NCBI GenBank assembly: GCA_965242505.1
Contig: OZ251449.1
Location: 2,803,843-2,867,842, forward strand
Origin: Alphaproteobacteria bacterium
Lineage (GTDB): Bacteria > Pseudomonadota > Alphaproteobacteria > UBA2966
Reading direction: 5' to 3'
DNA length: 64,000 nucleotides
Position numbers and translations under genes: made by a program. Positions 19,905 to 61,660 of the stretch are shown here, in pieces. The notes below the pieces were generated by a model. The model worked only from the letters and a program-made list of their open reading frames with translations. It was not told the DNA's origin and searched no databases. Numbering within the stretch: position 1 is the stretch's first letter; every line of letters starts with the position of its first letter.

Positions 19905-20290
19905 GGCGCGACCCCCGCCCCGGTTCTCCCCCTGACGCGATCCACGCTCCTCCCCCTGGCCGTCCATACTCCTCCCCCCTGACAGGGGGGAGGTCGGGAG
20001 GGGGGTCCGCGGCCCCGCGACGCCGTTCGCGCTCGGCTCCACCGGCGTGACCCCCACCCCGACCCTCCCCCTGCAAGGGGGAGGGAGAAGAGAGGGGCGC
20101 CGGAGAGTCCGTCGGCGTTCCTTCCCGCTGACCGTTCATACTCCTCCCCCCTGACAGGGGGGAGGTCGGGAGGGGGGTCCGCGGCCCCGCGACGCCGTTC
20201 GTGATCGGCTCCACCGGCGTGACCCCCACCCCGACCCTCCCCCTGCAAGGGGGAGGGAGAAGAAAGGGGAGGGGGAAGGGGGACGGAGGG
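19905..20290. repeat. Cluster of about 6 REP-like elements (types A and B alternating, 2 composite units)
   Basis: ctcccccctgacaggggggaggtcgggagggggg...gacccccaccccgaccctccccctgcaagggggagggagaag... repeated. Confidence 0.75.
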
Positions 20291-48604: not shown

Positions 48605-48664
48605 GCCAGACCCGTTCCCGCTTGTCCGCAGGACTCGTCCAGAGACGGGGGCGCCGCAGGGTCC

Positions 48665-48730
48665 GTTCGCGCTCCTCTCCCCTGGCCCGGCCCCCACCCC
48701 GACCCTCCCCCTGCCAGGGGGAGGGAGAAC
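48665..48730. repeat. REP-like element (type B variant)
   Basis: cccccaccccgaccctccccctgccagggggagggagaacgtaggggg. Confidence 0.65.
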
Positions 48731-49019
48731 GTAGGGGGACGGCTAACCCTGCCGCGCCTTGAATCGCCGGTTCGTCTTGTTGATCACGTACACGCGGCCG
48801 CGGCGGCGCACCACCCGGCAGTTGCGGTGCCGCTTCTTCGCGGTCTTCAGCGACTTGAGAACCTTCATGCGCTCACGGGGTCCCGGCGGCGTCCAAGTGG
48901 GCGCGATACATAGGCCGGGACGGCGGGGCCTGTCAAGTTCACGTCCTCGTTCGATACGTCATGAGGCGCCGCGCGCCCCGAGGGGAACGCGGCGGACCAT
49001 TCCGCCCGGACGGGCGGCT

Positions 49020-51602
49020 TCAGTTCGACGGCGCCGTCACGCGGCACTCCTCCGCCTGGCAGGCGCCGAAGCTGCCGAACGCGGCCACACGCCGGTTCTG
49101 GTGGGTGGAGTCCGTCTCGATGCGCCACCAGCCGGCGGTTTCGAGCTTGTCCGCGGGACCGTAGAGGGCGCCGCCGTACTCGCCCTTGTTCCACGACGTA
49201 TCCCACGGGTCCGCATGGCCCGTGTAGCTGCCGTCGGCTGCGATGTCGCCCTCCGCCAACAGGATCGCGAACCCTTCATGGGAATGGCCATCCCCTCCGT
49301 TTCTGAGGAACTGGTTCTTCTGCCAGATGCCGTTTTCGAGCGCTTGCAGGTTGGCGACGTTACCCATGATCTTGTTGGCGCCGGTGGGAATGCCTTCGCC
49401 CGTGCAGGCGCCGGCGCCGATGCAGGCGTTGAGGGTCACGTCGCCCCGCAGGCGGGCGAAGTGGAGGACGTGCGGCGCGCTTTCGCTGCCCACCGAATTG
49501 CTCCTGGGATGCAGGATCATCCCCATGGTCCTGCCCCGGAACGTGGCCTCGATCGAGGTCGCGCGGTCGGTCGTCTTCGCGTCGTCCGCGTCGCGGAAGG
49601 CGTCGTAGCCGAAGTGGAAGCCCTGCAAGAGGCCCGGCCGGGGATACTCGTCGATGTAGTCGGTGTACATGAACAGGCCGTAGGCCGCATAGGACAGGTA
49701 ACGGTCGGCGTCGTCGCCCGCATCGTCCGCATCCGCGCCCGCGTCGAGGCCGCCATGGTTCGACAGCCAGACCCGGAGGTCGCCCAGCGCGCCATGGGCG
49801 GCGAGGCGGCGGCCGTCGCTGTCTTCGGGGTCGGGCTGGGGCTGGTTTCCGCTCAACCCGTAGCGCGAGGCCCAGTAGTAGTTGGGTTCGCCGTCGGGGT
49901 CGGCGTAGGGCGCGCCCCAGGAGATCTCCGCGTCGCTGCGGTTGAAGTCGTAGCAATACGCCGGATAGGCCCCGCTGCAATCGTCCGACATCACGTTGTT
50001 CCCGGAGTCCTGCGTCCCCCAGGCGCCCGGCGAGTTGATCCCGTCCCGGCCCCGGCTCGACGACCTGTCGAGGTCGTGCTTGAAGAGGCTCATGACGGCG
50101 CCTTCCCCGCCGGTCCTGAAGACCATGCCGTCGGGCGTGAAGCGGACCGAGCTGGTCACCGGATTCAGGTAATGGCGTTGGTAGCTACCCGACGGGGTGA
50201 TGGCGTTGCCGTCGGTGTCGGTCGTCGCGCCCTGGACGACCGGGATCTTCGGCGTGGCGCCGCCTTCGTCGTCGGTGGCGCCTTCGGGGCTGGGCCTGAT
50301 GTCGCCGCGCATGGAGACCGCCCGCAGCGGGAAGTGATCGCTCTCGCCCGTCGCGGCGGGCGAGAGCACCGTCTTGCCGGCGGCCCAGGCGACCGCCTCC
50401 GTCTGGATGTCCAGTCCGTTCGGGTTCGGGCAGGGCATGTTCACGGTGCAGTCGGCGAACGCCGCCTCCCTGGGCGTGAGCGTGACCCGCGCGGTGAAGG
50501 GCGCGCCCCCCGTCTGTCCGGGGGGGACCTGGTTCAGGATCGAGGGAGGGGCCGCCAACCCGGGGTCGGCGGCGATGCGGGTGGCGGCCCAGGCGCGCGT
50601 CGCGGTCTCGGCCGCCATCGCCGCCGCCGCCCCTGCGTCGGCCTCCGTCCGCTGGTCGTCCGTGGCCGCCGCGGCCAGAGCCGAGGCGGCAGCCGTTGCG
50701 AGCGCCGCCGCGGCCGTCCTCTCCGCCTCGCGCGCATTCACGAAGGCCGTCTGCGCGGCCGCCAGCGCCGTCTGCGCCGCCTGTCTCCGCGTCTGGGCGG
50801 CCTCGCGGTCCGCCGTTTTCCGTTCGTCCGTGGTGTCGCCGTCCCAGGCCGCGGCGGTCGCCTGGAAGTCCGCCTCCGCCTTCTCCAGGGCCGCCTGGGC
50901 CGCCGCCAGCGCCGTCCCGGCCTGCCCGGTCGCGGCCTGCGCCGCCGTCAAACCGGTCTGCGCCGAACGCAACGCCTCCTCCTCCGCTGTCGGAGTCGGC
51001 GGCTCCGGCGCCGCCGGCGGTCGCGCTCGCGCTTCGGCCAGTTCCTCGCGCAGCAGCGGCACCAGGGAGACTTGAGCGGTGGTCAGCAAGCCCTGGGCCT
51101 GCAACAGCACGGTTTCGACCGCGTCGGTGGGGTTGGCCTCCAGCGCCGCGGTTATCTGGGTCTGGGCGGCGTCCAGCGCCGCCTGCGCCTGGTCCAGCGA
51201 CGTGTGCGCGCTGTCGAAGGAAACGGTCCCCCCCGACCCGAACGCCGTATTGGTCGTATCCAGGGCCGCGATGACCGCCCCCAAGGCGTTGTCGACCACC
51301 ATCAGCACCGTGCGGACATTCTCCGGCAGCTGCGGCAGATTATCCCGGAGATTATCCCGGCCCTCGTTCAGCTTCTCGCGGGCTTCCGGGCGCCGTTCGG
51401 GGTTGGTGGCCGCCGCCAGCGAGTCGCGAAGGTCCGCCAGCGCGGTTTCGGCGGCTGCCGTCTTCTGCCTCTCGGCCTCGAGGGTGTCCTCGCCGATGCG
51501 CACCGTCCTGGTTTCGGTGCAGGCGCCCAGCGCCAGAGCCATGCCGCAAATCAACACCGCCGTAAGTCTGGAGATCGTCATCGAACGGGAACCCCCCCTC
51601 AT
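49020..51602 (-). CDS. Large surface-type lipoprotein (about 853-860 aa): signal/lipobox, Ala-rich coiled-coil N-terminal half, C-terminal TbpB/fHbp-like beta-barrel domain
   Basis: (MRGGSRS)MTISRLTAVLICGMALALGAC has the lipobox LGAC. Residues about 30-330 are Ala/Gln/Thr-rich helical repeats. The C-terminal about 250 aa (..GFAILLAEGDIAADGSYTGHADPW..YGGALYGPADKLETAGWWRIE..AAFGSFGA) resemble the 8-strand barrel or handle of TbpB/HpuA/fHbp-type surface lipoproteins (family recalled from memory). A 958-aa antisense shadow ORF lies opposite. Confidence 0.7.
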   Translation of the reverse strand: MRGGSRSMTISRLTAVLICGMALALGACTETRTVRIGEDTLEAERQKTAAAETALADLRDSLAAATNPERRPEAREKLNEGRDNLRDNLPQLPENVRTVLMVVDNALGAVIAALDTTNTAFGSGGTVSFDSAHTSLDQAQAALDAAQTQITAALEANPTDAVETVLLQAQGLLTTAQVSLVPLLREELAEARARPPAAPEPPTPTAEEEALRSAQTGLTAAQAATGQAGTALAAAQAALEKAEADFQATAAAWDGDTTDERKTADREAAQTRRQAAQTALAAAQTAFVNAREAERTAAAALATAAASALAAAATDDQRTEADAGAAAAMAAETATRAWAATRIAADPGLAAPPSILNQVPPGQTGGAPFTARVTLTPREAAFADCTVNMPCPNPNGLDIQTEAVAWAAGKTVLSPAATGESDHFPLRAVSMRGDIRPSPEGATDDEGGATPKIPVVQGATTDTDGNAITPSGSYQRHYLNPVTSSVRFTPDGMVFRTGGEGAVMSLFKHDLDRSSSRGRDGINSPGAWGTQDSGNNVMSDDCSGAYPAYCYDFNRSDAEISWGAPYADPDGEPNYYWASRYGLSGNQPQPDPEDSDGRRLAAHGALGDLRVWLSNHGGLDAGADADDAGDDADRYLSYAAYGLFMYTDYIDEYPRPGLLQGFHFGYDAFRDADDAKTTDRATSIEATFRGRTMGMILHPRSNSVGSESAPHVLHFARLRGDVTLNACIGAGACTGEGIPTGANKIMGNVANLQALENGIWQKNQFLRNGGDGHSHEGFAILLAEGDIAADGSYTGHADPWDTSWNKGEYGGALYGPADKLETAGWWRIETDSTHQNRRVAAFGSFGACQAEECRVTAPSN

Positions 51603-51605
51603 TAC

Positions 51606-51886
51606 GTGAAGAGGCCCCGTGAAGAGGCCCCGTGAAGAGGCCCCGTGAAGAGGCCCCGTGAAGAGGCCCCGTGAAGAGGCCCCGTGAAGAGGCCCCGTGA
51701 AGAGGCCCCGTGAAGAGGCCCCGTGAAGAGGCCCCGTGAAGAGGCCCCGTGAAGAGGCCCCGTGAAGAGGCCCCGTGAAGAGGCCCCGTGAAGAGGCCCC
51801 GTGAAGAGGCCCCGTGAAGAGGCCCCGTGAAGAGGCCCCGTGAGGCCCCGTGAAGAGAGGCCCCGTGAAGAGGCCCCGTGAAGAGT
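51606..51886. repeat. 13-bp perfect tandem repeat gtgaagaggcccc, about 18 perfect copies plus about 3 degenerate copies, immediately 5' of the lipoprotein gene start
   Basis: Read directly in sequence. Perfect copies run from 51606 to about 51842, then the variants gtgaggcccc / gtgaagagaggcccc / gtgaagaggcccc / gtgaagag. The unit length is not a multiple of 3. Confidence 0.95.
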
Positions 51887-52029
51887 ATGACCCTATCCTA
51901 TCACGAACGACGCCGCAAGGTCAAGATTCGTCCCGGTTCAATACATAAACATACGAACATATGAGACGCCGCGCAGGCCGCATTGTCTCATGCCGGGGGT
52001 GGGCCGAGGATCGCGCGGCGTTGCGGGGC

Positions 52030-52100
52030 GACGGAGACCCCCCTCCCGACCTCCCCCCTGTCAGGGGGGAGGAGTGTGGATGGTCAGGGGGGAGGAACGC
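52030..52100. repeat. REP-like element (type A)
   Basis: cccccctcccgacctcccccctgtcaggggggaggagtgtggatggtcaggggggagg. Confidence 0.7.
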
Positions 52101-52169
52101 CGCTGGACCCCCGCGGGCCGGTCCGGCATTATCGACCGCGAACGGACTGCGCAGGGAGGACTGGCGGCC

Positions 52170-52943
52170 ATGGCGAGGCTGGACGGAAAGGTCGCGCTGA
52201 TCACCGGCGCGGGGGCGGGCATCGCGCGCGAGGCGTGCCGCCTCTTCGCGAACGAGGGCGCCGGGGTCGGCGTCGTCGAGATCGACCCGGAGACGGGCGG
52301 ACGGACCGCCGACGCGATCAGGGCGGACGGCGGCAGGGCGGTGGCCATCCAGGCCGACGTCACCCTGCCCGACGACGTCGAGCGCGCCGTCGCGCGGACC
52401 GTCGAGGCCTTCGGCAGGCTCGACGTCCTCTACAACTGCGCCGGCGGCTCCGCGCCCCCCGACGACTCCGTGACCGAGATGCCGATCGAGGCCTGGGACC
52501 GCAGCATCAGGCTGGACCTCTACGGCACGTTCCTCGGCTGCCGCTTCGGCATCCCGGAACTGAGGAAGGTCGGCGGCGGCTCGATCATCAACATGAGCTC
52601 GGTGATGAACTTCCTCGGCGAGATGCGCGGCTTCCCGCCGCGGCATTCCTATTCCGCCGCCAAGGGCGGCGTTTCGGCGCTCACCCGCTGCGTCGCGGCC
52701 GAGTACGCCAGGGACAACATCCGCTGCAACGCCATCGCGCCCTGTTTCGTGGAGACCGACCGCAACGTCGCGGTGAAGGCGGGCTGGACCAACGAGACGA
52801 CCGCCACCGTTCTCCGCCAGCACCCCCTGGGCGCCGGCCGGCCGATCGACATCGCCAACGCGGCGCTGTACCTGGCCTCCGACGAGTCGCGTCTGGTCAA
52901 CGGCGTCATCCTTTCCGTCGACGGCGGCATGGTGGTGACCTGA
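52170..52943 (+). CDS. SDR-family oxidoreductase (257 aa)
   Basis: GGGAGG RBS. MARLDGKVALITGAGAGIAREA.. is the TGxxxGxG motif. ..NCAG.. and ..YSAAKGGV.. form the YxxxK catalytic pair. ..PCFVETD.. Confidence 0.85.
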   Translation: MARLDGKVALITGAGAGIAREACRLFANEGAGVGVVEIDPETGGRTADAIRADGGRAVAIQADVTLPDDVERAVARTVEAFGRLDVLYNCAGGSAPPDDSVTEMPIEAWDRSIRLDLYGTFLGCRFGIPELRKVGGGSIINMSSVMNFLGEMRGFPPRHSYSAAKGGVSALTRCVAAEYARDNIRCNAIAPCFVETDRNVAVKAGWTNETTATVLRQHPLGAGRPIDIANAALYLASDESRLVNGVILSVDGGMVVT

Positions 52944-53006: not shown

Positions 53007-53639
53007 TCACCGTGAAACAGCCTCCCGCACGGGCCGGAACGAACGCCGGTGGTGAGGGGTCGGCCCGAGGGCGTCGAGCGCCCGGGCGTGTTCCGGCGCG
53101 CCGTAGCCGGCGTTGCGTTCCCAGCCGTAGCCGGGATACAGCCGCGCCAGCCGCCGCATGATCCGGTCGCGGGTCTCCTTGGCGACGATCGACGCCGCCG
53201 CGATGGAGAGCGAGCGTGAATCGCCGCCGACGACCGCCCGGGCGGGGCAGGCGAGAACCGGCAGGCGGTTGCCGTCCACCAGGGCGTAGGAGGGCGGCGT
53301 CGCGAGCGCCTCGACGGCCCGCCGCATGGCCAGCATCGTGGCCTGGAGGACGTTCAGGGAGTCGATCTCGCCGACGCTGGCCTCGCCGACGCCGACGGTC
53401 GCCGACGCCCGGATTCGCTCGCACAACTCGGCCCGGCGTTCGCGCGACAGGCGTTTGGAATCGTCGATCCCGTCCGGCGCGCGGTCCGCGGGAAGGATCA
53501 CGGCGGCGGCGACGACCGGTCCGGCCCAGGGGCCCCGTCCGGCCTCGTCGATGCCGGCGACGGGCGGCGGCAGGGAAGCCTCCAGGGAGAGATCGGGCGC
53601 GGCGCGCGGCGGGGGCGCATCCACCGTCGCCGTGACCAT
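53007..53639 (-). CDS. rnhB: Ribonuclease HII (about 210 aa)
   Basis: ..[35 protein letters not shown]...[18 protein letters not shown]... are RNase HII catalytic DEDD-context motifs. The start was taken at MVTATV; the ORF is continuous in frame with the upstream domain. Confidence 0.8.
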
Positions 53640-54194
53640 CGCCGCCGCGTCCGGGGCGCGCGCCGCGATGGCCACCGTCGCCGTCACCGCTCCGGGCGCG
53701 GCGTCCGTCACCGTCATCGTCTCCATCGCCGGGGCCGGGGCCGCGAGAGGCCCCCGCTCCGCCTCGCCGCGGAACCTCCGGGCCGCAGCCGGGAACATGT
53801 CCGCCGCAGCGGCCTCCGGAGCCGGGGTCGGCGCCGGAGGCCGGTAGTTGTCGCGGTAGCGTTCCGGGCGGTGGGCCTTGAGCAGGAACATGGCCAGGGC
53901 GTCCGAATAGTGGCGCGTCGTCCCCACCTGCTCCCCCTTATGCCAGACCGGCTTCTCCACCCCCTCGAAGGCGCGGCGGTGGAGCATGGCCTCCAGCAGG
54001 TCGATGCCGTCGTCGAGGGCGTCGTTCCACCTGCGGGCGAAGTCGGGGTCGGCGTCGCGCCAGTCGTAGACGGTGCGTCTGGGGACGCCGGCGTCGCGGC
54101 AGGCGGCGGCGACGTTGACGGTGTCGGCGAGGGCGTGGAGGAAGGCGCGTTTGCGGCGCGGGCGTTTGTCGGCGGCGGCGGTGTCGTCGTGCAT
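53640..54194 (-). CDS. Terminase-small-subunit-like HTH domain protein, in frame with rnhB (no intervening stop) through a Pro/Ala-rich linker
   Basis: The RBS GGGAGAcgacccc-ATG is the motif shared by other genes here. [91 protein letters not shown].. resembles phage small-terminase / homeodomain-like HTH proteins. It is not clear whether this is a real fusion or an independent gene. Confidence 0.4.
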
Positions 54195-54299
54195 GGGGTC
54201 GTCTCCCGTTCCGGTGTGGAAACAATATGGGAACATACGCGATGCGAGTCAAGAGGAAAATTCCGATATGGAGAAAAAATCTCTACGGCCGTGATTCGT

Positions 54300-54770
54300 C
54301 TCCGTTGGGGGGCGGGTTCGGCGCGCCGATCCGCACACTTCGCACACCTTCCGGGACCTCGTTCTCCCTCTCCTGTTCTCCCTCTCCCTTCCAATCCGCA
54401 CACCTCGCACACCGGCAGGGACCCCCCTCCCGACCTCCCCCCTGCCAGGGGGGAGGAGTTTGAAAGGGGATCCGCACACTCCGCACACCCTCCCGTCCTT
54501 TTTATTTCTCCCTCTCCCTTGCAGGGGGAGGGTCGGGGTGGGGGTCACCGGCGTTGCGGCGGGGCGCGTCCATCCGGACCCCCCTCCCGACCTCCCCCCT
54601 GTCAGGGGGGAGGAGTATGGATGGGCAGGGGGAGAAGTGTGGATGGGCAGGGGGGAGGAGTTTGAAAGGGGATCCGCACACTCCGCACACCCTCCCGTCC
54701 CTTTTATTTCTCCCTCCCCCTGGCAGGGGGAGGGTCGGGGTGGGGGTCGCGCCGATCCGCACACTCCGCA
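54300..54770. repeat. Cluster of 7 or more REP-like elements (types A and B), including a duplicated block of about 170 bp
   Basis: tctccctctcccttcc..., cccctcccgacctcccccctgccaggggggaggagtttgaaaggggatccgcacactccgcacaccctcccgtcc...ccctctcccttgcagggggagggtcggggtgggggtc; the block at 54400-54560 recurs at 54590-54760. Confidence 0.75.
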
Positions 54771-60519: not shown

Positions 60520-61660
60520 CGTATGCGCTCCTCTCCCCTGCCGTGACCCCCACCCCGACCCTCCCCCTGCAAGGGAGAGGGAGAACAAGAGGGGACGGGA
60601 AAGGGCCATTGACGCTCCTCCCCCCCTGACCATCCATACTCCTCCCCCCTGACAGGGGGGAGGTCGGGAGGGGGGTCCGCGGCCCCGCAACGCCGTTCGC
60701 GCTCCGCTCCCCTGGCGTGACCCCCACCCCGACCCTCCCCCTGCAAGGGGGAGGGAGAAGAAGGGGGGACGCGGAGGGAGCCGTCGACGCTCCTCCCCCC
60801 TGACAGGGGGGAGGTCGGGAGGGGGGTCCGCGGCCCCGCAACGCCGTTCGCGCTCCGCTCCCCTGGCGCGACCCCCACCCCGACCCTCCCCCTGCAAGGG
60901 GGAGGGAGAACGTAAGGGGACGCGGAGGGAGCCGTCGACGCTCCTCCCCCCTGACCATCCATGCTCCATCCCCCCCTGCCCCCCTGACCATCCATACTCC
61001 TCCCCCCTGACAGGGGGGAGGTCGGGAGGGGGGTCCGCGGCCCCGCAACGCCGCCGTTCGCGCTCCGCTCCTCTGGCGTGACCCCCACCCCGACCCTCCC
61101 CCTGCAAGGGAGAGGGAGAACAAGAGGGGACGGGAAAGGGCCATTGACGCTCCTCCCCCCTGACCATCCATGCTCCATCCCCCCTGACCATCCATACTCC
61201 TCCCCCCTGACAGGGGGGAGGTCGGGAGGGGGGTCCGCGGCCCCGCAACGCCGCCGTTCGCGCTCCGCTCCCCTGGCGCGACCCCCACCCCGACCCTCCC
61301 CCTGCAAGGGAGAGGGAGAACAAGAGGGGACGGGAGGAGGGCGGACCGCGGCCCCGCAACGCCGTTCGCGCTCCGCTCCCCTGGCGGGACCCCCACCCCG
61401 GCCCTCCCCCTGCAAGGGAGAGGGAGAACAAGAGGGGACGGGAGGGGGGTGGACGCGGCCCGCAACGCCGTTCGCGCTCCGCTCCTCTGGCGTGACCCCC
61501 ACCCCGGCCCTCCCCCTGCAAGGGAGAGGGAGAAGAAGGGGGGAGGTCGGGAGGGGGGTGGACGCGATCCTGCAACGCCGTTCGCGCTCCGCTCCCCTGG
61601 CGTGACCCCCACCCCGACCCTCCCCCTGCAAGGGGGAGGGAGAACGTAAGGGGATGGAGG
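60520..61660. repeat. About 1.1-kb tandem array of 7 or more composite REP/BIME-like units (each about 110-210 bp, holding one type B and one type A palindrome plus a conserved linker ccgcggccccgcaacgccgttcgcgctccgctcccctggcg)
   Basis: The units start at about 60523, 60675, 60826, 61039, 61237, 61348, 61448 and 61570. Some carry an extra insert, ctgaccatccatgctccatcccccctgaccatccatactcc. No unique spacers are present. Confidence 0.85.

Follow-up and report, generated by a model that had tools for sequence, protein, structure and literature searches.

Introduction

Repeat-driven contingency loci belong to the textbook biology of a few human mucosal pathogens. In the porA/opc type of Neisseria, phase variation is brought about by a homopolymer in the promoter spacer. 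The vlp genes of Mycoplasma hyorhinis form a lipoprotein multigene family in which a conserved promoter and signal-peptide module is combined with divergent mature regions, and each copy has one hypermutable tract, a poly-A tract in the promoter spacer; to our knowledge, no 13-mer leader array is known for vlp. The Slam-dependent surface lipoproteins include TbpB, LbpB, HpuA, fHbp, and hemophilin. The TAAA repeat of nadA offers a further comparison for phase variation of the promoter type (PMC2791445). The action of repeats within a transcribed leader was addressed recently, in 2025, for hmw1A of H. influenzae, whose (ATCTTTC)n repeat is transcribed, forms a 5′-UTR hairpin with a G-rich arm, and is cleaved by RNase III, with expression inversely proportional to repeat number, i.e., a rheostat (PMC12721329). 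In addition, Beggiatoaceae, Cyanobacteria, and Bacteroidetes have been described as having TAACTGA direct repeats upstream of start codons (PMC4679880).

Here we describe a 13-nt tandem array in front of a TbpB-like lipoprotein gene in a 64,000-nucleotide stretch of alphaproteobacterial DNA (the window), an array which, judging from its sequence and that of related loci, is probably a mutation-driven expression dial. The closest precedent is the hmw1A 5′-UTR repeat. As in hmw1A and hmw2A, a unit whose length is not a multiple of three is present in many copies between the promoter (here predicted) and the start codon of a large surface-protein gene, and a pyrimidine-rich repeat of polymorphic copy number, here in a predicted leader, pairs with a G-rich segment (here by prediction). 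Unlike hmw, where the repeat pairs with one downstream G-rich arm, the 13-nt unit of the window carries its own G-run and is therefore self-complementary, and one and the same unit is used by many paralogs, by unrelated genes, and in several species. The TAACTGA repeats are similar in that one fixed short tandem unit lies upstream of many different genes in several lineages; however, their unit is another one, present mostly in 2–6 copies, and they are not tied to any family of surface proteins. The family of the window gene resembles vlp in that its lipoproteins share a conserved promoter and signal-peptide module but differ in their mature regions, and each copy has a hypermutable tract of its own.

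Organization of the Array and Its Predicted Promoter

The features of the locus are collected in Table 1. A single array was detected by TRF at 51605–51885, with a period of 13, 21.7 copies, 96% matches, and a score of 523. Exact search on the plus strand identified 19 perfect GTGAAGAGGCCCC units, 18 of them consecutive (51606–51839) and one at 51865–51877. When up to two mismatches were allowed, the window contained 23 GTGAAGAGGCCCC matches against 2.8 expected, a number reached in 0 of 100 shuffles. The perfect 13-bp tandem repeat upstream of the lipoprotein gene, as given in the preliminary description, is thus confirmed by TRF, exact search, and shuffles alike, and the count of 18 perfect plus three degenerate copies was near the actual composition, in which 19 units are perfect, two are indel variants, and a stub precedes them. 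Read on the sense strand from the promoter side, the stub ctcttcac is followed by one perfect unit, then by the two indel variants, a 15-nt GGGGCCTCTCTTCAC and a 10-nt GGGGCCTCAC, and then by 18 perfect units, so that both variants are among the three promoter-proximal units and the 18 gene-proximal units are all perfect. With 19 of 21 units perfect, the array is a long, near-perfect tract of the slippage-prone kind.

Table 1. Features of the lipoprotein locus, in window coordinates.
Feature	Position	Strand	Remarks
Upstream motifs 'gaaccgggac', 'catatgttcg'	51925..51965	(-)	
Predicted sigma-70-type promoter	51895..51924	(-)	TTGACC-N18-TAGGAT
Tandem array, 21 units of GGGGCCTCTTCAC + 8-nt stub	51606..51885	(-)	Sense-strand reading
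Junction and ribosome-binding region gtaatGAGGGGGGGttcccgttcg	51582..51605	(-)	SD GAGGGGGGG inside
Lipoprotein gene, 853 aa + stop	49020..51581	(-)	

The predicted promoter comprises a -35 element (TTGACC, 51924–51919), an 18-nt spacer, and a TG-extended -10 element (TAGGAT, 51900–51895), with a predicted transcription start near 51888. It is the sole promoter-like site within 51300–52400 (shuffle mean 0.0), and reading of the sequence revealed no plausible alternative promoter within the units or the 24 nt past the array. The promoter is conserved in most array-bearing loci: a module with the consensus CGAATTTTGACCTTGCGGCGTCGTTCGTGGTAGGGT lies 12–20 nt ahead of the array in L003, L007, L026, L034, L040, L042, L043, and L049, and the same module also precedes a C14/G14 hairpin in L014 and L033. 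Because this conserved predicted promoter lies wholly upstream of the array, the array is read as transcribed leader and not as promoter spacer, and would form the bulk of a ~307-nt 5′ untranslated leader, between the promoter and the Shine-Dalgarno (SD) sequence, where length could affect expression. Unlike the porA/opc type, then, the window array is located downstream of its predicted promoter and cannot act via -35/-10 spacing. The original placement in the promoter or 5′ UTR accordingly narrows to the predicted 5′ UTR by the position and conservation of the predicted promoter, and altered promoter spacing through copy number is excluded for this array.

The motifs upstream of the promoter are a half-site and relatives of the palindrome TGTCCCGaaCCGGGACA, which is found upstream of the CGAATTTTGACCTTGCGGCGTCGTTCGTGGTAGGGT promoter in L043 and L049; they are a possible, though weak, candidate operator. 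Comparison with known RNA families in Rfam gave nothing above chance-level miRNA noise.

Translation Start and the Encoded Lipoprotein

The longest mechanical ORF (860 aa) starts at ATG 51602, 4 nt from the array. The likely start, however, is ATG 51581: the 853-aa product is identical to database protein P0001, homologs begin likewise (MTI(S/T)RL...) in the alignment, and GAGGGGGGG at 51592–51600 provides its SD sequence. With this start, the gap between array and start codon becomes 24 nt instead of 4 nt, and the array does not begin within a few bases of the start codon, as had been assumed for the 860-aa gene. With G-U pairs counted, the SD sequence shows complementarity to the CCUCUUC/GGGG segments of the unit.

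The signal peptide, MTISRLTAVLICGMALALGAC, has its lipobox cysteine at residue 21, and residues L18 and C21 are invariant across 40 homologs. Residues ~31–328 form long helices, and residues ~365–842 form a beta-rich, TbpB-like handle-plus-barrel domain with an 8-stranded barrel. The lipobox, the N-terminal stalk (here a helical region), and the TbpB/fHbp-like C-terminal fold (here TbpB/HpuA/fHbp-like) of the preliminary description are thereby borne out. No Pfam, NCBIfam, or PDB-profile match, TbpB_B_D and FHBP_C included, was obtained for the window protein or the family profile; a TbpB_B_D match (6e-22) was found solely in the unrelated array-linked lipoprotein of L057. In contrast to the known Slam-dependent lipoproteins, the window protein lacks a Pfam TbpB_B_D match, a helical N-terminal region of ~300 residues replaces the ligand-binding lobe, and no Slam (PF04575) gene is present within the 64-kb window. 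Slam adjoins family members L022, L030, and L036, and the window lipoprotein is probably exported to the surface by Slam. No conserved neighboring genes were found across the loci other than Slam, in five loci. One homolog sits between cobN and cobO, which makes cobalamin or a metal a conceivable ligand. The hosts of the window family are uncultured Alphaproteobacteria, at least partly sponge-associated, and not Neisseria-like pathogens, which also sets the family apart from the known Slam-dependent systems.

Predicted Structure of the Leader

In the leader RNA, adjacent units are predicted to pair through GGGGCCUC with GGGGCCUC, giving 8 bp that include two G-U pairs and enclose the loop UUCAC, at approximately -7.4 kcal/mol per unit. 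The folding z-score of the leader is -9.4 against shuffles. For the window, folding predicts that the last unit pairs with the SD region (-15.3 kcal/mol), and it does so too for L003, L019, and L021; the other loci are mixed. Double-stranded RNA with a G-rich partner is thus predicted in two forms, as inter-unit helices and as unit-SD pairing.

Under equilibrium folding, copy number, odd/even parity included, shifts the predicted accessibility of the ribosome-binding site (RBS) weakly: about 0.14 versus 0.19–0.33 in the window and at most 0.17 elsewhere. Such a weak change leaves RNA occlusion unsupported as a sensor of copy number. A parity switch, whereby the SD sequence is occluded when the last unit remains unpaired, was rejected on the same ground, since ensemble RBS accessibility barely changes and the effect fades with added units; minimum-energy structures do alternate with odd and even unit number, and the parity switch may be retained as a minor possibility. 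An RNA G-quadruplex (G4) is disfavored, with hairpins at -28.8 versus the G4 at -15.4 kcal/mol per four units (ViennaRNA). As single-stranded DNA, the array forms weak structures.

Copy Number, Gene Family, and Spread of the Unit

Long-read metagenome-assembled genomes (MAGs) contributed at least 12 further loci with the module of promoter, array, SD, and lipoprotein gene, their arrays having 1–29 units. Exact-unit counts are 19 (the window; 21 with the two variants), 22, 6, 7, 3, 1, 9, 29, 13, 9, 6, 5, and 28. At the strain level, the comparison consists of two syntenic pairs at loci other than that of the window, differing by one and two units. L062 and L007, colinear at 97.8% identity across 5.5 kb, differ in their 400-bp flanks by 4 and 3 mismatches (~99% identical) and have seven and six units, respectively; L066 and L006 have three and one. 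The window locus is represented by a single assembly, and polymorphism is read between strains at homologous loci. Paralogs on OY282368.1 contain 5, 6, 9, 13, and 28 units within flanks that are 83–100% identical. Homopolymer lengths, such as G17 versus G18 on a 3x contig, may reflect sequencing errors and were excluded as evidence of polymorphism. Long arrays are perfect and the short array of L049 bears point mutations, as expected if slippage homogenizes long arrays. The instability attributed to the array at the outset thus agrees with the 1–29 copies present at homologous positions, and the cross-strain comparison of copy number then proposed gave whole-unit differences in both pairs. On these sequence comparisons, variation of the phase or rheostat type appears well supported.

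A simple repeat is present within 900 bp upstream of 38 of the 54 family loci. The density of simple repeats is 0.905/kb upstream of the family versus 0.038/kb elsewhere (24-fold, p = 6e-30). Many loci have a poly-C tract between a TTG-type -35 and a TGnTA extended -10 element, an arrangement, with tracts of 12–40 nt in paralogs, that is like the porA/opc type, in which the target genes likewise encode surface proteins. Near-identical paralogs contain C12, C16, C19, and C25 tracts, L064 contains a C40 tract, and some paralogs have C14/G14 leader hairpins in place of the 13-mer array. Since paralogs bear other simple repeats, the whole family resembles a set of contingency loci, in line with the initial view of the window gene as one of phase-variation type.

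The identical 13-mer unit occurs in several MAG species, always in the sense orientation, and is unchanged among genomes whose proteins share just 30–40% identity. It also stands ahead of unrelated genes for envelope proteins, and two such genes come from a sponge metagenome; array-preceded genes unmatched by the family profile encode the TbpB_B_D lipoprotein with Slam (L057), a lipoprotein (L060), and a DUF4189 protein (L058). The sole variant unit, GGGGCCCCTTCGC in L046, keeps and perfects the self-complementarity. Homology between the window and L003 is confined to a segment from the promoter through ~50 bp past the stop codon, and L063, a 93% ortholog of L006, has a different leader type. 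That the unit does not vary between species could be due to a recent spread of the cassette rather than to selection on the unit. No array was found on viral contigs. In the literature, the 13-mer was found only in two papers, as an unrelated mouse/human primer; searches for Slam lipoproteins of sponge symbionts and for the MAG accessions yielded nothing.

Mechanistic Considerations

We favor, with somewhat better than even confidence, a self-contained cassette of promoter, leader, SD, and gene for a TbpB-like, probably Slam-exported lipoprotein, in which copy number of a hypermutable leader repeat would tune the output. Slipped-strand mispairing would add or remove whole 13-nt units, leaving promoter and frame intact and altering the length and structure of the leader. 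The quasi-self-complementary units (GGGGCCUC) would give the leader a chain-like or rod-like fold of 8-bp helices, and a single unit, being complementary to the G-rich SD region, could occlude the ribosome-binding site. Copy number would then set the amount of lipoprotein in each lineage, heritably and reversibly. Candidate routes are mRNA processing or stability (e.g., RNase III acting on repeat duplexes), elongation through the repeat, and SD occlusion; a graded rheostat, in which expression would fall as the array lengthens, seems at least as likely as a strict ON/OFF switch and in our view likelier. Other family members may reach the same end via promoter-spacer poly-C tracts or C/G hairpin leaders. 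The transcription start, slippage rate, effect on expression, and molecular route are as we infer them from the sequence.

In a broader but rather doubtful version of this proposal, GGGGCCUCUUCAC would be a portable, sequence-specific leader module for many envelope genes across families and species, within a clade of uncultured Alphaproteobacteria that live at least in part with sponges. A dedicated trans-acting factor (RNase III, a repeat-binding protein, or an sRNA) would read the self-complementary, anti-SD units, the number of units that slippage sets would program expression separately for every member of a large Slam-lipoprotein repertoire, and the cassettes would move or recombine. If true, this would amount to a symbiont surface-variation system combining three hypermutable repeat kinds.

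It is unlikely that the unit sequence is itself a functional leader element, common to many envelope-protein genes, whose variation in copy number is incidental. Such an element might stabilize the mRNA, enhance translation or offer a standby site for it (with ~20 SD-like GGGG motifs), or serve as a binding array for a sequence-specific RNA-binding protein or an sRNA. The identity of the unit across species and ahead of unrelated genes, its constant sense orientation, the existence of leaders with a single or few units (L006, L049, and L066), and the conserved heptamer repeats just upstream of Beggiatoaceae start codons, proposed as places at which a post-transcriptional regulator acts (PMC4679880), are compatible with this explanation. 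However, a fixed function needs no range from 1 to 29 copies in near-identical cassettes, and no candidate binding factor was identified. Moreover, classic hypermutable homopolymers occupy equivalent positions in paralogs, an indication that variability is what selection favors.

Action at the DNA level, via G-quadruplexes or R-loops from the non-template G-runs or via protein binding, would produce a length-dependent elongation block or a start for recombination that shuffles lipoprotein cassettes, and is judged quite improbable. A G4 starts recombination at pilE of Neisseria. The recurrence of GGGG at 13-nt intervals along the sense, non-template strand, the poly-G or poly-C tracts of paralogs, and the movement of the cassette between genomic contexts (the window versus L003, and the leader types of L063 versus L006) would fit such action, but loops of 9 nt are long by the standard of stable G4s, and the folding energies favor RNA hairpins over the G4 and assign weak structures to the single-stranded DNA.

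A neutral minisatellite hitch-hiking with a mobile or duplicating cassette, with expression unaffected, could explain why copy number varies freely and why the cassette lies in differing genomic contexts. This is very unlikely, as the array is placed exactly between promoter and SD with invariant orientation at every locus, its unit stays constant despite the 30–40% protein identity and is complementary to the SD sequence, and other repeat types, 24-fold enriched, take equivalent regulatory sites in paralogs. Finally, a translational frameshift switch, with 13-nt changes inside the coding sequence, is effectively refuted: the sense strand of the array is open, with no stop codon in any frame, and the mechanical ORF list starts the gene just 4 nt away, but neither the unit nor the stretch from the predicted transcription start to the array contains ATG, GTG, or TTG, a lipoprotein signal peptide has to be at the N-terminus and this one begins at ATG 51581 with its own SD, and the homologs and P0001 begin there as well. 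Copy number leaves the frame unchanged, as had been surmised from the position of the array.

Concluding Remarks

On the reading preferred here, the contingency logic of pathogens also operates in uncultured Alphaproteobacteria, at least some of which come from sponges. Almost throughout a multigene family of TbpB-fold lipoproteins, hypermutable tracts precede the genes, and one type of tract is a 13-nt unit that is identical across species and unrelated genes. If the proposal is true, stochastic diversification of the surface, much as in pathogens, would extend to symbionts of early-branching animals, and the array would provide a second independent system in which leader-RNA repeats set expression. 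The 13-mer would also serve as a sequence tag for variable surface genes in metagenomes.

Array, Promoter, and Start Codon

The tandem 13-bp array claimed in the preliminary description is real, as TRF, which reported this single array, an exact-unit search, and shuffling agree. There are 19 exact copies of GTGAAGAGGCCCC, 18 of them consecutive, and 23 unit matches with two mismatches or fewer were observed against 2.8 expected, a number attained by none of the shuffles. Because the gene lies on the minus strand, the sense-strand unit is GGGGCCTCTTCAC, and the array opens at the promoter end with an 8-nt stub and a single perfect unit, followed by variants of 15 and 10 nt and then, up to the gene, 18 perfect units. 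The gene start formerly placed at 51602 (860 aa) corresponds only to the longest mechanical ORF; judged from database protein P0001, the SD, and the MTI(S/T)RL...LALGAC signal-peptide start shared with the homologs, the true start is almost certainly ATG 51581, which puts the array end 24 nt upstream of the start codon.

Only one sigma-70-like site is found in 51300-52400, on the minus strand and adjoining the array upstream. The same module (consensus CGAATTTTGACCTTGCGGCGTCGTTCGTGGTAGGGT) recurs 12-20 nt ahead of the first unit in most array-bearing homologous loci, so the window promoter cannot be put down to chance; L019, L021, L058, and L060 have a more diverged version (L numbers denote compared long-read MAG or metagenome loci). 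The predicted transcription start would give a 5′ leader of ~307 nt, 280 nt of which is array, and the array is probably a transcribed leader. A promoter-spacing model is excluded for the window, the predicted promoter lying wholly upstream of the array, as is translational frameshifting, because ATG, GTG, and TTG are absent from the unit and from the short stretch preceding the array, and a lipoprotein signal peptide has to stand at the N-terminus.

In L043 and L049 the conserved promoter is closely preceded by a palindrome, TGTCCCGaaCCGGGACA, a possible operator at which the lipoprotein family might be regulated. L043 also carries a threefold CATATGTCCCGAAC repeat upstream of this promoter.

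Features of the lipoprotein locus and of compared loci
Locus	Feature	Position	Remarks
Window	Lipoprotein gene, favoured start	49020-51581 (minus)	853-aa product, identical to database protein P0001
Window	Shine-Dalgarno (SD) GAGGGGGGG	51592-51600	Well positioned for ATG 51581
Window	Array	51605-51885	Period 13, 21.7 copies, 96% matches
Window	18 consecutive exact units	51606-51839
Window	Predicted transcription start	near 51888
Window	Sigma-70-like promoter (minus)	TTGACC (51924) to TAGGAT (ending 51895)	18-nt spacer, TG-extended -10; directly upstream of array
Window	Half-site gaaccgggac plus catatgttcg only	51925-51965	Just upstream of promoter
Window	G/C-rich REP- or MITE-like elements	48650-48760, 52030-52100, 54361-54661, 19926-20269, 60639-61645	Motifs e.g. 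CCCCCCTGACAGGGGGG, AGGTCGGGAGGGGGG
Window	RNase HII gene	53007-54236 (minus)	N-terminal extension
L014	Two-homopolymer leader hairpin C14-gtagc-G14	2934-2966	~23 bp perfect stem incl. flanking complementary bases
L033	As L014	2724-2756	As L014
L063	Decayed hairpin CCCCTCCCC-gtagc-G10	about 1440-1475	In place of 13-mer
L043	Palindrome	2502-2560 (with the CATATGTCCCGAAC repeat)
L049	Palindrome	about 2745-2770
L066	17-bp duplication (ggttgtggtaagataga x2)	about 560-600	Over -10 region of conserved promoter; array of 3 units
L065	DDE_Tnp_1 transposase insertion	701-1500	Truncates 5′ end of family member
L064	C40	about 1170-1210	Upstream of family member
L012	C35	2835-2869	Upstream of family member
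L020	C22, C21, C18	2379-2400, 5147-5167, 8016-8033	Spacing about 2.8 kb
L001/L005	77%-identical lipoprotein homolog	OZ251509.1, 1661572-1670154	Between cobN and cobO/cobB

The Lipoprotein Family

Relatives of the window protein are rare, only 45 being detectable among 5.8 billion sequences. Species-representative genomes, scanned with a profile built from 40 sequences, yielded 54 loci. Every one lies in a long-read MAG, its label being uncultured Alphaproteobacteria, Paracoccaceae, or "Gammaproteobacteria", and a single genome can hold as many as eight family copies. At the sequence level the window protein matches nothing in Pfam, NCBIfam, or PDB, and the 64-kb window has no Slam (PF04575) gene. 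An AF2 model from the 40-sequence alignment shows long helices (residues about 31-328) followed by a beta-rich domain (about 365-842), and Slam genes adjoin L022, L030, and L036, all strong members of the family (profile E-values 1e-174 to 7e-97). The earlier label of TbpB-like surface lipoprotein is supported by fold and family context and not by sequence-family membership; we infer that the protein is exposed at the cell surface.

The closest relative in the profile scan, L003, shares 90% nucleotide homology with the window from the promoter to ~50 bp past the stop codon, outside which their flanks are unrelated, and homologs occupy quite different genomic neighbourhoods, so the promoter-array-gene unit behaves as a relocatable cassette. 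REP- or MITE-like elements are abundant in the window, some as 150-200 bp tandem blocks, and one copy flanks the cassette on each side. The ~200-residue extension of the RNase HII gene matches an Sf6 small-terminase-like/HTH domain (Pfam), and is either an unusual fusion or an over-extended ORF. The L001/L005 homolog, whose promoter has a C12 tract immediately following TTGA, lies among cobalamin-synthesis genes, a hint that some family members may bind corrinoids or metals.

Copy-Number Variation

Eleven listed homologs have an identical 13-mer upstream, oriented alike and placed as in the window, with the conserved promoter before it and the SD after. Exact units number 29 in L021, 28 in L043, 22 in L003, 13 in L026, 9 each in L019 and L034, 6 each in L007 and L040, 5 in L042, and 1 in L006, while L049 retains one perfect and two point-mutated units. 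Five paralogs in one genome (OY282368.1) have flanks 83-100% identical, yet 5 to 28 units, and L034 and L042 differ (9 vs 5) beside 70/70 identical upstream bases. The cross-strain comparison proposed earlier was run on homologous loci: two strain pairs, syntenic and independently assembled, each show whole-unit differences, namely L062 (ERZ25070167) and L007, colinear at 97.8% over 5.5 kb (7 vs 6 units; 400-bp flanks with 4 and 3 mismatches), and L066 and L006 (3 vs 1). The array is very probably hypervariable. In L065, a family member whose protein is 95% identical to that of L007 has lost promoter, array, and N-terminus to the transposase insertion.

Most other family members carry poly-C or poly-G upstream tracts of 9-40 nt. 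In many loci poly-C separates a TTG-type -35 hexamer from a TGnTA extended -10 (e.g., cTTGTCA-C12-GTGgTAGGGA), the classical promoter-spacer arrangement, and four near-identical paralogs on OY282363.1 have C12, C16, C19, and C25. L014 and L033 retain the TTGACC promoter, with aacgaacata-C14-gtagc-G14-tatgttcg standing in for the array; the hairpin arms reuse the aacgaacata/tatgttcg motif, tatgttcg also being part of the catatgttcg upstream of the window promoter. L063 is a 93% ortholog of L006. Overall, 38/54 family loci have a simple repeat within 900 bp upstream, a density of 0.905 per kb, compared with 0.038 in the remainder of the loci (binomial p = 6e-30). Long reads commonly err in homopolymers, and for this reason homopolymer lengths were not counted as evidence of polymorphism. 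The C40 and C35 tracts exceed what a functional promoter spacer could span, and these copies are presumably locked off; the L020 spacing suggests tandem family members with one tract each.

The Unit before Unrelated Genes and Its Predicted Folding

A metagenome scan for three tandem units gave four contigs, two from the Sarcotragus foetidus sponge metagenome LXNI. In L057, L058, and L060, the array follows an extended -10 and precedes the SD, and the downstream genes, unmatched by the family profile, encode a lipoprotein matching TbpB_B_D/FHBP_C in Pfam, with a Slam gene next in line (L057), a DUF4189 protein with a signal peptide (L058), and a 970-aa lipoprotein (L060). The unit is not restricted to one gene family. 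In these three loci the SD falls inside GGGAGGGAGGC(C/U)CC; in L060, GAGGCCCC exactly complements the unit core GGGGCCUC, with near-complements in the other two.

Adjacent sense-strand units are predicted to pair core with core (8 bp including two G-U, loop UUCAC) at about -7.4 kcal/mol per unit, and the leader fold reaches -168.5 kcal/mol (z = -9.4 vs shuffles). Pairing between the last unit and the SD region is predicted for the window, at -15.3 kcal/mol, and is clear for L003, L019, and L021, with mixed results in other loci. In the only variant unit found (GGGGCCCCTTCGC, two copies in L046), G-U positions of the core become G-C pairs. A fixed, sequence-specific leader function, a less likely rival, would agree with an identical unit across species and before unrelated genes; the 1 to 29 copies in near-identical cassettes are to be set against it. 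One model tested was that unit parity determines whether a leftover unit blocks the SD. Minimum-energy structures alternate with odd and even unit number, but ensemble RBS accessibility in equilibrium folding differs only slightly, less in long arrays, so equilibrium folding leaves copy-number sensing unexplained. A DNA-level role, through G4/R-loop formation or recombination, would draw on the G-runs that recur every 13 nt in the array; in the model a four-run G-quadruplex is less favourable than hairpins (-15.4 vs -28.8 kcal/mol), and both strands fold weakly as single-stranded DNA. The antisense strand cannot form the G-U pairs. A neutral minisatellite would account for hypervariability, and less readily for an identical unit held between promoter and SD.

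Implications

The best precedent is H. influenzae hmw1A, whose transcribed (ATCTTTC)n repeat forms a long 5′-UTR hairpin with a G-rich arm that RNase III cuts, expression dropping with increasing repeat number (PMC12721329). For the present array, we lean towards an effect of copy number on expression; that such an effect would run through the structure or processing of the RNA, and not through DNA structure, is suggested tentatively. Repeat-mediated phase variation and 5′-UTR repeat rheostats are kinds already known, and a literature search found no mention of the 13-nt unit. What is new is a self-complementary, anti-SD unit that is identical across species and unrelated genes, that shares a single Slam-type lipoprotein family with two further repeat types serving in its place, and that occurs in uncultured, at least partly sponge-associated, Alphaproteobacteria. 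On the most likely reading, the array would be a slippage-prone leader repeat serving, after transcription initiation, as a heritable and reversible dial on lipoprotein expression, and the dialled gene would be one member of a variable surface-lipoprotein repertoire.
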